Source: a virus | Taxonomy: Duplodnaviria; Heunggongvirae; Uroviricota; Caudoviricetes | Reading direction: 5' to 3' (one strand) | Length of the DNA stretch: 25,633 nucleotides | IMG/VR virus record: IMGVR_UViG_2778261217_000004 | Span: 1-25,633 of that record | Shown here: one piece after another, positions 1-25,633 of the stretch | Layout of the letters: the number at the start of each line of letters is the position of its first letter | Numbering within the stretch: the first letter of the stretch is position 1 | Translations under genes and position numbers: made by a program | The notes under the pieces: generated by a model | What the model was told of the DNA's origin: nothing | The model's input: the letters and a program-made list of their open reading frames with translations, nothing else | The model's database searches: none

Positions 1-1143
1 CTATGCTGTTTTGATATCTACGATAATCCAGTCTTTACCACGATCATCATTGTATCGGTCGGTCATTTTTCTGGATTTATGGCCTAACAACTTTTGCGTA
101 TCCAGACCCTGTTCCCGATATAACCGTTCTGAGAGAGATCGCTGCTCATGAAATGTGGGCGCAGTTCCTTGCTCCCATTTTATGCCACATTTTTCCCGGG
201 CCTTTTTAAAAGCCGTTGTCAGAGTATTTGCAGAAACCTGGTCTCCTCTGTTTGCTTGAGAGGTAGTGTGACGGTAATGGACCAGATATTTACTAACAAC
301 AGCATCCCTGCACTGAGATATAACTTCACGAAGGGTAATATTCAGAGCATCGCATTTCAGGTTAAGCGGAATAGCAAGTCTTGAACCGGTTTTTTCCTGA
401 GTAATGTGCAACATGTCGTCCCATATATCAGAGAATTTCAAATTGCAGATATCGCCTAAACGTTGTCCAGTAACAAGAGCAAGTAGCATCCCGCATTTTA
501 AATAGGGCTGCCGTCTGCTTACGCTGTCAAATATTGCCTGCCATTCGGGCAGTGATAATCTTTGGCGGTTTACTCGATTTCGCGGTTGTTTTGTTGCCTG
601 CGCTGGGTTAAATCCTGGCGGAACATGTCCTGCGTGTTGTGCTTCTTTGAAGACGTCGATCAACACCATTCTCACGACTTGCGCCATCCTGTTATGACCT
701 TCAGCCTTTACAGCATCAATTATTTCGGCAATATCAAGTGCGGTAATATCCTTGAGGTGTTGCATTCCACAATGCTCACGGAAAAGACGAATGGGTTTGC
801 CTTTTTGCCGATAGGAGTTGGGTCTTAGTTCATTATGTTGCAGCCTGTCCTCCTGGATAGAAATATATTTATCAAGCCATTCTGTCACCGTAATGTCTGA
901 GCGCCTGCCTTTCATTCTTTCCAGACGCTCATTGACGCTTAATATTTGTCTGGTACGTTGTTCAGCAATAATGGTATTTGCTTCAGTAGCAACTTGTTTT
1001 GCTTCATTCTCATCAGTTCCTAAGCTATGAAAACGACCGGATAGTGGATGTTTGTATTGCCAATATACCTTTCCGGTTCGCTTATCTAATTTGCAATATA
1101 AATTGGGTATAGAGATTTTGTGAGATCGGGGTCTAGCAGCCAT
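1..1143 (-). CDS. int: Phage integrase, tyrosine recombinase (lambda Int family)
   Basis: 380-aa ORF alignable along its length to lambda Int; C-terminal catalytic block PTFHEQRSLSERLY...LLGHKS...RY; ATG at 1141-1143 overlaps xis stop; stop codon at 1-3. Confidence 0.93.
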   Translation of the reverse strand: MAARPRSHKISIPNLYCKLDKRTGKVYWQYKHPLSGRFHSLGTDENEAKQVATEANTIIAEQRTRQILSVNERLERMKGRRSDITVTEWLDKYISIQEDRLQHNELRPNSYRQKGKPIRLFREHCGMQHLKDITALDIAEIIDAVKAEGHNRMAQVVRMVLIDVFKEAQHAGHVPPGFNPAQATKQPRNRVNRQRLSLPEWQAIFDSVSRRQPYLKCGMLLALVTGQRLGDICNLKFSDIWDDMLHITQEKTGSRLAIPLNLKCDALNITLREVISQCRDAVVSKYLVHYRHTTSQANRGDQVSANTLTTAFKKAREKCGIKWEQGTAPTFHEQRSLSERLYREQGLDTQKLLGHKSRKMTDRYNDDRGKDWIIVDIKTA

Positions 1144-19808: not shown

Positions 19809-20165
19809 TAGTTTTGTGATATGCCGCAGAAACGTTATATGCAATAACGTGCTGCGGTTGGCTGATGTACTTTCGAGAGTGTATTGAATAATTTCCAACC
19901 GTCATTAATTTTATTTATTTTTTGTATGAGAGGATTTGAACCTCCGAGCCTCGACACCTTATGACAACGCGATATTGCCTTGATGATCGCCATGTGCCAA
20001 AATAACCAATTGATAAATAAGTTTATTTTAATTGGTTGGAAGCAAGTCAGGTCAAATTCAGCATTCCGCTCTCTGTATCGGATAGTTAAATTTTTCTATA
20101 ACTGATAGTAATATGTTAAAACTCACACAGATAAATTATCATTGCTCAACAAGTATAATGGAGTT

Positions 20166-22124
20166 CCCGTGGATACAGCAGAACATGATGGCAAGTTTGC
20201 TTGGGCTAGTTTTTATGAGGCTTTTGCCAACGCGTTACTGACTTGGCGAAATCGTAGAGATGAATTAGTCAAAGGTATTCATCTAATTGCCTCGGGTGTG
20301 GAAGGAATGTCCCATCTGCAGGACAAATCTATTATGGGAGAGATCTTTCCCTTAAAAGACATTTGTCCGTTTACTACTATGGGCTTGTTCAATCGTAACT
20401 TGACCGACAGCAATCGCAAAATTATTGCTGCCAAGCTAGCGAATTTGTTGGGCGTGAACGAACCGATTCCAGACTCCTTTGCCGGAATCCCTCTGTTGAA
20501 TAACCAAAAATCTTGGTTCTTTGGTTATGAAAAGTCACGCGACCCTAATGACATTGAATGCTTGTGGGAAATGTTCTCACAGGCAATGACCTTTGCGGAT
20601 AACCAGAATACTAACTCTGCAGACTTCACTGCCGCATATGACATCGCTTCTACAGTAATGAATGTCGGTTGGAATCTCACCATGGGGTTGTACTGGACCC
20701 GTCCTTGGTTCTACCCCACTTTAGATAGCCAGTCGCAGTATTACATTCAGACAGTGTTAAACATTAAGATCATTAAAAACGGGGCAAAAGGTCGCTGTAG
20801 TGGACAAAGTTACCTGAGTCTTATGCGGGCGCTGAACGAGGTCTTTACCCAACCAAACTATCCGGTTCATTCTTTCCCAGAACTTTCCTTATCAGCGTGG
20901 AATACAGATCTTAGCCAGTCTAAAGATGAAGTGGCAAATAGAACGTGGAAAGCCTCTTTACTGAATAAAATTAAGGCGTTATGCCTGAAAAAAAATGGCC
21001 CTTATTTCACTGCTTCGGAGTTGGAAGAAAACTACTTGGACGTATTCAAGGTAGAGCATCCTGAGAGCAAAACTGTTACAAGCTCAATCTACTTTTATCT
21101 ACAGAAACTATGCAATGATGATGAGTTAAAGTCCCTCGAGTCCGGAAATTATGAATACCTGAATTTTGAGAAAAACGAATCCCAGACGATAACTGAGGAA
21201 ACTGTCGAAGAGAGTGCGCTGTTGCCAAAACTCACCCACGTTCCTTATGACATCAGTCATCTGGTGCAGGATGGCTGTTTCTTGGAAGAGGCTAAGATCC
21301 AACTCACACTTCAGCGCCTGATCGACAAGAAAAACCTGATATTACAAGGACCACCAGGAACTGGAAAAACTTGGTTAGCGCGACGTCTGGCGTACTGCTT
21401 GATGGGAGAAAAAGCACCTGAGCGTATTAGCGCGGTGCAATTTCACCCGAACCTCTCTTACGAAGACTTTATTCGCGGCTGGCGTCCAGGTAAAGAAGGG
21501 CAATTGACGCTAATTGATGGACCTTTTGTAAATGCAATCAAAACTGCAGTCAATAATCCTACCTCGAAATATGTGGTGATAATTGAAGAGATTAATCGTG
21601 GCAATCCGGCGCAAATCTTCGGTGAAACACTCACATTGATGGAAGCAGATAAACGCACGCCGACTGAGGCATTATCTCTTTCCTATCCTAAAAATGCTGA
21701 TGAAAAAATATACATTCCTGAGAATCTATATATCATCGGTACGATGAATATTGCAGACCGCTCACTCGCACTACTTGACCTAGCGCTGCGCCGTCGTTTC
21801 GCGTTTATCGATCTAAAGCCAGCTTTTAATGACGCGTGGAGAAACTGGGTAAATTATAATTACGCAATTGATTTTGACATGTTAGCATTCATCAAATCTC
21901 GACTGACGGTATTAAACGATATGCTGGCAAAAGATGTTACCTTAGGACCACAGTTTTGTATCGGTCACAGCTATGTCACCCCAGCTATCGGCCAAAAAAT
22001 CAACGATGCCCAGGCTTGGTATGAACAAGTCGTTGATACAGAGATCTGCCCTTTGCTCGCCGAATATTGGTTCGATGCTCCAAATAAAGTCGATGAAGCC
22101 AGAAAAGTGTTATTAGCAAAATGA
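20166..22124 (+). CDS. mcrB: McrB-like AAA+ GTPase with a long uncharacterised N-terminal domain
   Basis: C-terminal Walker A GPPGTGKT, Walker B VVIIEEINRGN, McrB signature MNIADRS and RRRF; first ~390 residues not recognisable; start taken as GTG 20166 (GGAG RBS), open frame begins at TTG 20142. Confidence 0.8.
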   Translation, partial: PVDTAEHDGKFAWASFYEAFANALLTWRNRRDELVKGIHLIASGVEGMSHLQDKSIMGEIFPLKDICPFTTMGLFNRNLTDSNRKIIAAKLANLLGVNEPIPDSFAGIPLLNNQKSWFFGYEKSRDPNDIECLWEMFSQAMTFADNQNTNSADFTAAYDIASTVMNVGWNLTMGLYWTRPWFYPTLDSQSQYYIQTVLNIKIIKNGAKGRCSGQSYLSLMRALNEVFTQPNYPVHSFPELSLSAWNTDLSQSKDEVANRTWKASLLNKIKALCLKKNGPYFTASELEENYLDVFKVEHPESKTVTSSIYFYLQKLCNDDELKSLESGNYEYLNFEKNESQTITEETVEESALLPKLTHVPYDISHLVQDGCFLEEAKIQLTLQRLIDKKNLILQGPPGTGKTWLARRLAYCLMGEKAPERISAVQFHPNLSYEDFIRGWRPGKEGQLTLIDGPFVNAIKTAVNNPTSKYVVIIEEINRGNPAQIFGETLTLMEADKRTPTEALSLSYPKNADEKIYIPENLYIIGTMNIADRSLALLDLALRRRFAFIDLKPAFNDAWRNWVNYNYAIDFDMLAFIKSRLTVLNDMLAKDVTLGPQFCIGHSYVTPAIGQKINDAQAWYEQVVDTEICPLLAEYWFDAPNKVDEARKVLLAK

Positions 22125-23242
22125 CGACAATAACCGGGAGTGAGCAACATACAGCATCACGTATTCCCATGCGAAATATCTGGATGCTGATGCTGTACGC
22201 TTCAGATCTGTTTCGCCAGTTAGGGCGCAATCAGATCGCAGTAGAAGATAACCCAGCAGAAATCCCCGACCTGGTGGCGACAATCCTCCTTCATGAGATT
22301 ACGCTGCGCCGACGTCGCAATTTAAATATGGGATACCAAACTTGTCATGCGGCCCTGAACCGGGTGAGAGGGCGCATTGACATACTGTATACTGCCAGTC
22401 ATCAACTGCTGGAACGGGGACAGGTTGCCTGCCATTTTCAAGACATAACCCTCAACACCCCCCGAAATCGCTATGTTCGCTGTGCGTTAGAACGTCTGGC
22501 CTCAATCATAGTGAAACCGTCTTTGGCGGCAGATTGCCATTTTATGGCAATATCACTTCGCCGTGAGGGGATAAATGGAGGATATCCTGCCCCCCACGAA
22601 TTACCCTCAGTGTGGCGTTTTGGACGCCATGATGCCGCAGATAAACCGATGGTCGATGCCGCACGATTAGCTTTTGAACTGCTGATGCCGACCGAAGATC
22701 AAGGCCAATATCTTTTACCTGCGCCCTCAAATAACCTTTACTGGATGAGAAGACTATTTGAAAAAGGTATCGCTGGCTTATATCGTGTACACCTTGCCAA
22801 AACAACTTGGCAGGTCTCTGCAGGGAAAGAGCTGAAATGGGCGTTGAGCGATCAAAGTGCAGGTAGTGCAGAGATTTTCCCGACAATGAAGTCAGACATT
22901 ATTCTGGAACACAAGACTGCCCAGCGGCGTATTATTATCGATACCAAATTTAATTCGATTCTGACAAAGGGTTGGCATCGGGAGCAATCACTACGTAATG
23001 GCTATATTTATCAGCTATATACCTACCTTAGAACACAGGAGAACAAGACGGATCCGCTTTCGCTCAATGCCGCTGGTCTTCTACTTCATCCAGCTGTTGG
23101 CTATATGCTTAATGAGTATGTTGTCACTCAGGGACATAAGATCCATTTTGCTACAGTAGATATGACGGTAGATGCTAAAGCAATTAAAAAACAATTGCTG
23201 GCAATAGCCCATGATTGTGCAGGAGTCGCGGTTGATGACTAA
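22121..23242 (+). CDS. mcrC: McrC-like endonuclease subunit (PD-(D/E)xK)
   Basis: 373 aa; ATGA overlap with the McrB-like gene; nuclease-like block DIILEHK...IIIDTKF. Confidence 0.8.
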   Translation: MTTITGSEQHTASRIPMRNIWMLMLYASDLFRQLGRNQIAVEDNPAEIPDLVATILLHEITLRRRRNLNMGYQTCHAALNRVRGRIDILYTASHQLLERGQVACHFQDITLNTPRNRYVRCALERLASIIVKPSLAADCHFMAISLRREGINGGYPAPHELPSVWRFGRHDAADKPMVDAARLAFELLMPTEDQGQYLLPAPSNNLYWMRRLFEKGIAGLYRVHLAKTTWQVSAGKELKWALSDQSAGSAEIFPTMKSDIILEHKTAQRRIIIDTKFNSILTKGWHREQSLRNGYIYQLYTYLRTQENKTDPLSLNAAGLLLHPAVGYMLNEYVVTQGHKIHFATVDMTVDAKAIKKQLLAIAHDCAGVAVDD

Positions 23243-23954
23243 CCATCCTATAAGGCACTGGCTGTAATATAATCAATAGTTTCAATTAAGTAGCTGTTAT
23301 CCGTGCTTAGTCATCATATGACGCACCACGGTCTAATTTTCCTGCTCATACATTGATATATCCTTGTCGTGCCCGGAAAGTCGCAGTCCACTATGAGGTA
23401 TACCGATTGCCAGCACCAAAAGCTTCTTTGTGATTATTATATCGGGGAATGCCTATTTTTTTAGTGACAATATCAGATAGCAATTAATAAGCGGTGCCGG
23501 TAATGGATGTTATGTTTAATGTATAGACACAGCCATCATAAACTAAACGTCTGTTGTTCGCTCATAACCGACATTTATCTCAGTTATGGAAGATAATTAT
23601 GTATGCAGATAATGGGGCAGACAGTCGTGGAGTAAACAAGGTTTTGCACTGCTTGGCGGCATCGTTATCTTATTTTTAATTATGTGCCTCTTAACATAAG
23701 TTGGGACAAAACAGAGACACATAAGGTCTCACAAAGGTCTGCAAGGCCTCATATGTATTGAGATGTTAATAAAATGTAGGCTTGTAATTTGGATATAAAT
23801 GGTAGAGAAAACCTTTCCCCAAAATAAAAACGAACGTCAATGAAATCAAACGGTTGAATAAAGTTTATTTTGGCTAATAAAAAGACAATAAAATAATTTT
23901 TATCATTAAATATCAATGGCTTGAATTCATGGTTTTTATATACTGTTACGCCAT

Positions 23955-24107
23955 ATGGGCTGGACTGAAGCCGCAGACCTGATTGTTAAAGGTATGGAAG
24001 GCGCAATCAACGCCAAGACTGTAACCTATGACTTCGAACGTCTGATGGAAGGCGCTAAACTGCTGAAATGTTCAGAATTTGGTGATGCGATCATCAAGAA
24101 CATGTAA
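23955..24107 (+). pseudogene. icd: 3' fragment of isocitrate dehydrogenase gene (icd remnant at the prophage junction)
   Basis: Frame encodes ...[49 protein letters not shown], the Icd C-terminus; upstream frame is closed at 23922-23924. Confidence 0.88.
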
Positions 24108-24130
24108 TCACTACATGTGTTTAATATTGC

Positions 24131-24165
24131 AACGGGCGTATAACACGCCCGTTGTTTTATTTATG
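24131..24165 (+). terminator. icd intrinsic terminator
   Basis: Hairpin AACGGGCGT-(5 nt)-ACGCCCGTT followed by GTTTTATTTAT. Confidence 0.75.
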
Positions 24166-24209
24166 TAGGTATTATTAATAGCATATCGAGCATATTTATA
24201 TAAAACCCT

Positions 24210-24533
24210 TTACTTGAGCCCATATGGGCATATTTTTATAATGCAACTATTATGCAAACATTTATTTGTTATTTTGCTTTCTCCTGGAGGACACTCTTGA
24301 CTGCTTTTGAGTAGACTCCATAAATCCTTGTTGAATGGTGCGATGTTATAAATAGTAATAGGATATTCTTTATCTTTAAGGATAATTCCAGATTTAACCG
24401 GTGTAAATATACTGCCAGGAGGGAGAAATATAGTAGATTGATACCAGATGATCATTTTCATATTACCCCATATGGCTGAAAAAGATATGCCGCATGAAGG
24501 TTGAATTATCGTGTCAATTACTATCCACTTCAT
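24210..24533 (-). CDS. iraM: Anti-adaptor protein IraM
   Basis: 107 aa [36 protein letters not shown]..., matching E. coli IraM; AT-rich. Confidence 0.9.
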
Positions 24534-25228
24534 TTGTTATGTCTTATCCCACGGTATTTAATATAGTTCATTTGGATGTTCATTTCTTTATTTTGCATAT
24601 GAGTATATTACCCCTTCAAAAAATAAATTAATTAAAACGATTACTTATATAAAACAAAATTTAAAGCAAGGAATCTCAATGGATGTTAAACAAAATGAGA
24701 TTTAGTGAAAACAATAAATTATTCACTTCGTTTTAGATTTGTTTAGCTATAATGTTATACATTCAAATGACTGAACATCCTGTAATTAAAACATAGCCTT
24801 TATGCTACTTTGTGCCAATTTGCTAAACATTATGGTTGCCTTTTTATATAACGATAATAATGAATATAAGCATGACATGAGAATAAGGTTTCAATTTTTG
24901 AGTTATATAGGAAAGGTTTAACCTGTTCCTGGCTAAAATACATATAACTGGATGATGACTAAACCAAAACACATGTGCGTTAAGTATTGAAACGGGCGTA
25001 TGGCACACCCGTTGTTTTTATAAATATATTAACCGTTATAAAATAACGTATAGAAAGTCAAGTGATCACATTTCAAATATCAATTTGATAGTATTGGCAT
25101 GGTGATTATTTATGGGTAGCAATAAAAGGACAGTATTTATCATCCATAGGGATAGTCTCTGTACTTTTATTCCCATTATGCTAATGCCTTACTGAATTAT
25201 GAAGCATTTCTTAAGCATCCAACTTTAG

Positions 25229-25633
25229 CTAGATTAATGGTTTATTATTTTCTACATCTTCAATATATAAAAGCGTATTATCAATGGCGTAGTAACTGCG
25301 TTTGTTATGATTAACATCAGTAACCCACCGGAAAACGCCCGCGCCTGCTAGTGTTGAACAGTATTCCCGAAATGTAGATTTTCCGCAAATATGAAGCAAT
25401 GCGGCCTCTTTTATTTTAGCAGGGTTCTTGGTCGTACTAACTTTTAACAGGTTCCTGGTTCCTCTTAATAACAAAACCGTGTCATCGTGAGTAATAATTC
25501 TGATGTTATCCGTAGCCAGATAATAAATGTAATGTGCAATACGGTGATGTTTTAATTCTGAATAAAACCAGGAGAAGTTTTGCTCTTTTCTCACTTGCTC
25601 AAACATCTTTTGAAAAACAACGACCTGATCCAT
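25229..25633 (-). CDS. ycgX: YcgX-family protein (DUF1398)
   Basis: 134-aa ORF whose ATG is the last three bases of the window (25631-25633). Confidence 0.8.
   Translation of the reverse strand: MDQVVVFQKMFEQVRKEQNFSWFYSELKHHRIAHYIYYLATDNIRIITHDDTVLLLRGTRNLLKVSTTKNPAKIKEAALLHICGKSTFREYCSTLAGAGVFRWVTDVNHNKRSYYAIDNTLLYIEDVENNKPLI

Follow-up and report, generated by a model that had tools for sequence, protein, structure and literature searches.

The locus at the end of icd raises the question of why the icd terminator occurs twice, once at the border of a prophage and again beyond iraM. Elements such as e14 and phage 21, which integrate at icd, bring a substitute icd 3' end with its terminator and displace the resident end to attR. 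A first-pass annotation of the window (the whole 25,633-nucleotide stretch of DNA that was analysed) had proposed that the second terminator is the scar of an older integration at the same site, with iraM as surviving cargo of a decayed element. The features on which the argument turns are the following.

1–1143, minus strand: integrase of the current icd-integrated prophage, with Pfam lambda-integrase arm-binding and catalytic domains
23944–24107, plus strand: displaced icd 3' end forming attR of the current prophage, from translation and alignment with prophage-free genomes
24113–24158, plus strand: repeat copy 1 (T1), the icd terminator with an 18-nt leader; hairpin at 24129–24155, then a T-run
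24159–24970, minus strand: unique part of the iraM insert, 29% G+C, delimited by presence and absence among genomes
24210–24533, minus strand: iraM, between T1 and T2; named from RefSeq records
24786–24830: ymgK, a small ORF in the 437-nt AT-rich region upstream of iraM; RefSeq name
24971–25018, plus strand: repeat copy 2 (T2), a degenerate and probably older copy of the icd terminator, 41/48 identical to T1
25019–25065, plus strand: right flank common to filled and empty sites, with weak likeness to a P' arm
25066–25176, minus strand: ymgL, Pfam YmgL; AT-rich
25229–25633, minus strand: ycgX, AT-rich; RefSeq name

The window starts just inside attL of the current prophage. Its integrase is 99% identical to integrases found directly after icd and its terminator in O157:H7 and in another contig, and, apart from the last 1.7 kb, the window consists of a lambdoid-type prophage of ~24 kb. 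At the far end, positions 23955–24107 translate into 50 residues identical to the Icd C-terminus (the last 50 codons plus stop), and RefSeq records of matching genomes list this remnant as a pseudogene for a truncated isocitrate dehydrogenase. Alignment of the window with genomes that have no icd prophage starts at 23944–23949, which places the attR junction there. The annotated order of the last ~50 Icd codons followed by a terminator at attR was thereby borne out, as was the location of iraM (107 codons) between the two terminator copies on the opposite strand. With the displaced segment 23944–24158, the current prophage does exactly what e14 and phage 21 do.

Two observations concern this prophage itself. 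Adjoining attR, positions 20142–23242 of the window encode an McrB-like AAA_5 GTPase (660 aa) and an McrC-family partner (373 aa); the pair lies at the same position as mcrA in the e14 element of K-12, placing restriction cargo at the same end of two icd elements. At two O157:H7-type loci (L004 and L020), a prophage with the window's integrase occupies icd, with a single icd end, no iraM and no ycgX. The entire attR–iraM–ycgX side appears to have been deleted in such genomes.

Local alignment of T1 with T2 gave 41 identical positions out of 48, with two 1-nt gaps. The score of 57, compared with 18.9 ± 2.5 for shuffled sequences (z ~15), was far above chance, and a repeat search of the window returned the same pair, 860 nt apart and 84% identical. 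Similarity starts at ACATGTG, 5 nt past the icd stop, and ends at the T-run GTTGTTTT, spanning the leader and T-run besides the stem. No icd codons were found in T2 of the window even with permissive alignment, which extended the match slightly and to the right only. T2 therefore consists of the terminator and the 18-nt leader, without icd coding sequence, and the same holds in all genomes carrying the main, window-type version of the locus. The earlier description of a second icd-end/terminator copy ~860 bp further on is thus correct for the terminator, and similarity does extend beyond the hairpin into the leader, whereas icd codons were recovered solely through an allelic version of the locus described below. 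Being 48 nt long and 85% identical, with lineage-wide indels, the repeat is not a short identical target-site duplication. As for hallmarks of a transposon or IS, no terminal inverted repeats were found at the ends of the insert and no transposase ORF was present.

Evolution of T2 is relaxed. In a survey of 75 metagenomic loci, fetched through the right flank, the T1 hairpin and T-run were invariant in 45 of 45 T1 copies and in 24 of 24 single terminators. T2 occurred as at least six alleles with stems broken at different positions. The two common alleles (GGGCGT/ACACCC in the window, GGACGT/ACGGCC in K-12) have different breaks, and the rarest, AACGGGCGTATGGCACGCCCGTT, forms a perfect stem. 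The perfect rare stem, together with the differing breaks among lineages, indicates that T2 was once an intact hairpin and is now decaying independently. All T2 alleles differ from T1 by an inserted CG, an inserted G (TTAAGTATTG) and a GG loop, so T1 and T2 were already distinct before E. coli diversified.

The right boundary of the repeat coincides with that of phage-borne icd ends. Behind icd, the sequence ACGGGCGTATAACACGCCCGTTGTTT occurs in Citrobacter species, E. albertii and one cryptic-clade Escherichia, and it is present in every phage-borne replacement icd end seen. In phage-borne ends from E. coli, Shigella, E. albertii and Citrobacter (attL), homology stops at the same base, at GTTGTTTT, and element-specific DNA lies beyond the T-run; GTTGTTTT is also the right boundary of both T1 and T2. 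Positions 25019–25065, immediately right of T2, align locally with the arms of icd elements (S. flexneri, Citrobacter and the arm after the allelic T1) with z ~5 and at the same offset from the T-run. This weak likeness is a hint for the speculative idea that T2–ymgL–ycgX might itself be a still older attL.

Genome surveys showed strict linkage between T2 and iraM. Among 5,426 complete E. coli genomes, a collection without cryptic-clade genomes, a probe for the insert (24165–24965) detected it in 3,944, with or without a prophage at icd. In 1,037–1,039 of the 5,426, iraM was absent and one terminator directly abutted the T2 right flank; these include CFT073, 536, Nissle 1917, LF82, ATCC 25922 and the type strain. 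A diverged, larger version occupied the same site in 19 (19/5,426). At every locus read, the duplicated terminator occurred together with iraM, and iraM-less genomes had a single terminator; likewise, every filled site among the 75 metagenomic loci had T2 and every empty site a single T1-type terminator. A duplicated terminator in strains without any insertion, a possibility the first-pass annotation had raised, was not seen at these loci. Divergence of icd across the att core, compared for iraM-positive and iraM-negative strains, was 1.9% versus 3.1%, with no clear mosaic break. A third contig of the iraM type (P0006) is interrupted by an IS and stops short of any T2.

Empty sites show variation of their own. 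Those from metagenomes have near-identical right flanks and at least three stop-to-hairpin leaders (TCTCTACATGTG, TTACCACATGTG and TCACTACATGTG), one of which matches the E. albertii phage-borne type. The differing leaders may be traces of icd ends that prophages had brought in and that stayed behind when homologous recombination removed the prophages. In one metagenome contig (L098), IS200C (152-aa TnpA) is inserted exactly after the icd T-run of an otherwise empty site, with the junction CCCGTTGTTTT / IS200 / TATAAATATG; annotation alone places IS200C at the same locus in three further genomes (H19–H21).

An artificial 'empty' junction, assembled from the flanks of the window itself, served as a query for iraM-less genomes. 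Two genomes with window-type flanks (98–99% identity) lacked iraM. In Z1323CEC0015 the T2 flank adjoins a terminator of the T1 type, and in HH45 the icd stop and ACATGTG lead into a complete terminator of the T2 type (CGTTAAGTATTGAAACGGGCGTATGGCACACCC); the two crossovers lie at opposite ends of the repeat. On clustering of 620 nt of right flank, both genomes nest inside a filled cluster, which demonstrates loss of iraM by T1/T2 recombination. All other empty sites form one clade (B2 type), 2–4% from the filled clades, which are themselves 1.8–3% apart, and the E. coli data fit both an ancestral empty state and an old loss for this clade. In strains S42 and S40 (H190 and H191), the distance from the icd end to the T2 flank is ~170–190 bp shorter than in the window, suggesting that the iraM insert is partly deleted there.

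The icd codons absent from the window's T2 were found in the diverged version of the locus. An IraM homologue with 74% amino acid identity (iraM') led to a contig carrying this alternative version, whose order in R32_14_1F is given below.

Start: icd, T1, the arm TTGTTAGCCTGCTAACGGTTATCAAAATTTTATCAAAAC, a 455-aa ORF without Pfam match, an IS5 fragment
Middle: trkG, an unrelated hairpin, iraM', a YmgB/AriR-family gene, a region homologous to that upstream of iraM
End: ~220 nt, GCTATCAAGAATATGTTAA with a terminator hairpin (T2'), ymgL', ycgX', bluR

T2' is preceded by 'ATCAAGAATATGTTAA', in which the last five icd codons, for AIKNM, are kept. The icd end with T1 matches T2' over 66–84 nt at 77–80% identity (E ~6e-10 to 6e-13), with clear icd coding similarity over 15 nt, perhaps ~30. 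The AIKNM codons indicate that the T2 lineage comes from an icd end and not from an unrelated terminator; the derived leader TTAAGTATTG is common to T2 and T2'. For the 79 nt upstream of T2', the best alignment was to the att-core region of icd (icd 1079–1142, with the prophage junction at 1088), at a score that 1.6% of shuffles and 1% of the controls from real sequence also attained (p ~0.01–0.016). This weak but suggestive match may mark a collapsed core-to-stop remnant, and the allelic locus thus gives a faint indication that the old element may have used the canonical att core.

The arm after the allelic T1 is almost identical to the arm after icd in an S. flexneri locus, where an integrase lies 3.8 kb further on, and in two Citrobacter loci. 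Between T1 and T2, no integrase was found in either the main or the allelic version, and no structural phage gene in the window. In the window, the stretch that aligns with the allelic version opens exactly behind the T1 T-run, and its allelic counterpart opens behind the T-run of the unrelated hairpin; the direct contact of iraM with T1 in the window could stem from a deletion that joined two T-runs. The repeat boundaries differ between the versions, which indicates that the left boundary of the window's repeat is secondary. Identity between main and allelic versions is 70–79% from iraM to mid-ycgX (insert 70–78%), with ~70% at T2 and ymgL, rising to 90–95% in the 5' half of ycgX and ≥98% from bluR on, and ymgL–ycgX, right of T2, lies partly inside the differing block. 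A divergence of 22–30% implies that the arrangement either long predates E. coli or moved as a block, and the continuation of this divergence into ycgX is unexplained by a simple scar.

The 19 genomes with this version (among them L026, NZ_CP074749.1) have trkG beside the diverged iraM and the YmgB/AriR-family gene, between icd and ycgX. In K-12, trkG is part of the Rac prophage. The second ymgB-like gene of L026 lies a few kb from the resident ycgZ–ymgA–ariR cluster.

Relatives of iraM are at home in phages. Homologues with 63–71% identity are antisense genes in lambdoid late regions, immediately after stx2B in Stx2 phages and between Q and holin in another phage, and a further homologue sits on an integrase-bearing island; in the literature, iraL is placed on the potB island of CFT073. 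YcgX homologues of E. albertii (70% identity) are located between Rz and nu1 of lambdoid prophages. bluR, by contrast, is widespread in Enterobacterales. The G+C content is 29% for the iraM insert and 34% for ymgL–ycgX, against a window average of 43%. Small size, deviant composition, a position between terminators and phage-inserted homologues are features that iraM shares with phage accessory ('moron') genes.

No less-decayed prophage or free phage with the T1–iraM–T2 arrangement was found in phage records or viral contigs. Matches in Stx2 phage records were limited to the iraM coding region (72% at the nucleotide level), and the phage match examined had no flanking similarity to the iraM insert. 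A viral-contig scan for the T2 leader and hairpin returned matches that fit prophage calls at the same chromosomal locus, and the two that were checked were that locus. Most public viral-contig calls containing T2 (L118–L145) end 628 nt past it, at the start of ycgX, like the window; prediction programs seem to carry icd prophages too far, across iraM, ymgL and ycgX. No similarity was found between the P arm of the current prophage and the region upstream of iraM. Within iraM, the att-core motif CCATATGG(G) is matched twice, at 24217–24228 and 24463–24475 (GCCCATATGGGC and TTACCCCATATGG); both matches were treated as chance because they fall on PYG and AIW codons conserved in the Stx-phage homologue and occur at chance level.

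Outgroups were also sought. A terminator-pattern scan of the genome collection gave matches in E. albertii, cryptic-clade Escherichia and Citrobacter, but those with readable downstream genes were element-occupied attL junctions and supplied no usable outgroup junction. The bluR–bluF pair of C. freundii lies away from icd. The E. albertii YcgX homologues were rejected as an outgroup locus, being prophage paralogues.

We conclude that T2 is probably the displaced icd end of an older, iraM-bearing, phage-derived element, the decay of which left iraM between T1 and T2. Such an element would have integrated at icd and supplied its own replacement icd end, now T1, pushing the resident icd 3' end and terminator downstream to become T2. 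Deletions would have removed nearly the whole element and, in the main lineage, also the coding part of the icd remnant. What was left over would be iraM and its promoter region (the gene is known to have its own promoter) between T1, still functional, and T2, redundant and in decay. The 24-kb prophage seen today would have come afterwards, integrating at the icd att core and shifting the icd end and T1 to its attR; the window would then hold at least two generations of icd-targeted insertion. Use of this same att core by the old element is our inference, and so are the succession of deletion events and the choice of 'native' copy. The original proposal of an older scar with iraM as cargo accordingly survives on linkage, location outside attR, phage family and allelic icd codons, and not on icd codons in the window's own T2. 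Counting against it, the full ~165-nt icd remnant of an e14/phage-21-type attR is found in neither T2 nor T2'.

The AT-rich composition of iraM and its position adjoining the prophage end could be read as membership of iraM and T2 in the prophage now at icd, or in e14, and Hryckowian et al. 2014 (PMC4045071) state that 'iraM is found on the e14 prophage'. We regard this as highly improbable. The gene lies beyond the icd remnant that marks attR, and membership is refuted by the identical icd–T1–iraM–T2 arrangement in genomes without an icd prophage, which continues through ymgL and ycgX at 100% identity in, for example, SC492 and WP3-S18-ESBL-09. The same arrangement also occurs beside unrelated prophages, namely the McrBC-carrying element in the window and e14 in K-12, where it lies just outside the element, after mcrA and the icd remnant. 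Because the insert is present with or without an icd prophage, iraM is outside the e14-type prophage; since it lies beyond attR independently of the icd occupant, the published statement is imprecise. A role for T2 as a working terminator or insulator, for example against read-through from ycgX–ymgL into the iraM promoter, with its likeness to T1 due to selection or chance, is also improbable, if less so. RNA from T1 folds at −20.9 kcal/mol (z −6.4) and has the properties of an intrinsic (Rho-independent) terminator; plus-strand T2 folds at −9.9 kcal/mol (z −0.95) and lacks them. A 10-bp stem using G–U pairs does form in minus-strand T2 RNA (−13.4 kcal/mol, z −3.4), in favor of such a role, but on reading the sequence neither T1 nor T2 has a U-tract after the hairpin on that strand, and a terminator scan near the repeats scored T1 as the sole site, leaving T2 unscored. 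Stems broken differently by lineage, and a likeness that covers the leader and T-run too at z ~15, also speak against it.

The chief rival, weakened by the allelic locus, is that the iraM segment was inserted directly at the icd terminator and not at the att core, duplicating just ~50–85 nt. This could have proceeded through a Campbell-type single crossover of a terminator-bearing circle or a site-specific crossover at the icd stop/terminator. We consider it unlikely, though it deserves more weight than either of the preceding readings. It would account for a window repeat unit of terminator and leader alone, for allelic clear coding similarity of just ~15 nt, and for repeat boundaries that are both natural ends of the terminator unit; T1 and T2 are, moreover, proven recombination substrates. 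The short repeat loses force, however, where the boundaries differ between allelic versions and the window's left boundary is secondary. In addition, the allelic T1 is directly followed by a mobile-element arm, a layout shared with elements whose target is the icd core, a core-like stretch lies upstream of T2', and T2-specific indels in all lineages show that the copies were non-identical when E. coli diversified.

Taken as an older displaced icd end, T2 can be compared with known systems. It resembles the attR scars of e14 and phage 21 in including the terminator, in ending at the T-run and in having mobile-element DNA between the copies (the 29% G+C insert with a gene of a phage-cargo family and, in the allelic version, the arm, IS5 fragment and trkG). 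It differs from them in the absence of the att-core-to-stop copy of icd, a coding remnant of ~165 nt, and no integrase (int) or excisionase (xis) genes or arm-type sites survive with iraM. Stacked islands at tRNA genes also form rows of direct repeats of the target 3' end, with older ones decaying and precise loss possible; here, by contrast, the target is the end of a protein gene with its terminator, and the inner 'island' is one 107-codon regulator gene. The lambdoid moron genes of the iraM/iraL family in Stx2 phages are likewise small, AT-rich and antisense between terminators, whereas iraM of the window is chromosomal, present in most E. coli, host-regulated and without phage genes around it.

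A broader and more tentative possibility, which we would not yet favor, is that the icd end is a stacking site that preserves successive layers: every newcomer would leave its own icd end and terminator and push the older ones to the right, with iraM, ymgL and ycgX as domesticated cargo from at least three elements that arrived in succession and B2-type lineages having shed iraM. The layers would be today's prophage, then the remnant with iraM between T1 and T2, and an older one that would begin at the P'-arm-like flank right of T2. If true, the terminator repeats would make iraM, a host regulator of RpoS stability, precisely deletable, and it would have been shed by, for example, phylogroup B2.

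The displaced-end reading makes the iraM scar a nested scar of the ordinary kind at a prophage integration hot spot, with no new mechanism. No description of terminator repeats around iraM was found in the literature searched, and to our knowledge the icd-terminator scar is undescribed for iraM in the searchable literature. iraM is not part of e14; it is a remnant in its own right, apparently older and located just beyond attR. Boundaries called for icd prophages, that of the window among them, tend to take in such older non-prophage material. The direct repeats, shown to recombine, give a structural reason for the presence or absence of iraM among E. coli lineages, and this polymorphism bears on lineage differences in RpoS stabilisation under Mg2+ starvation.
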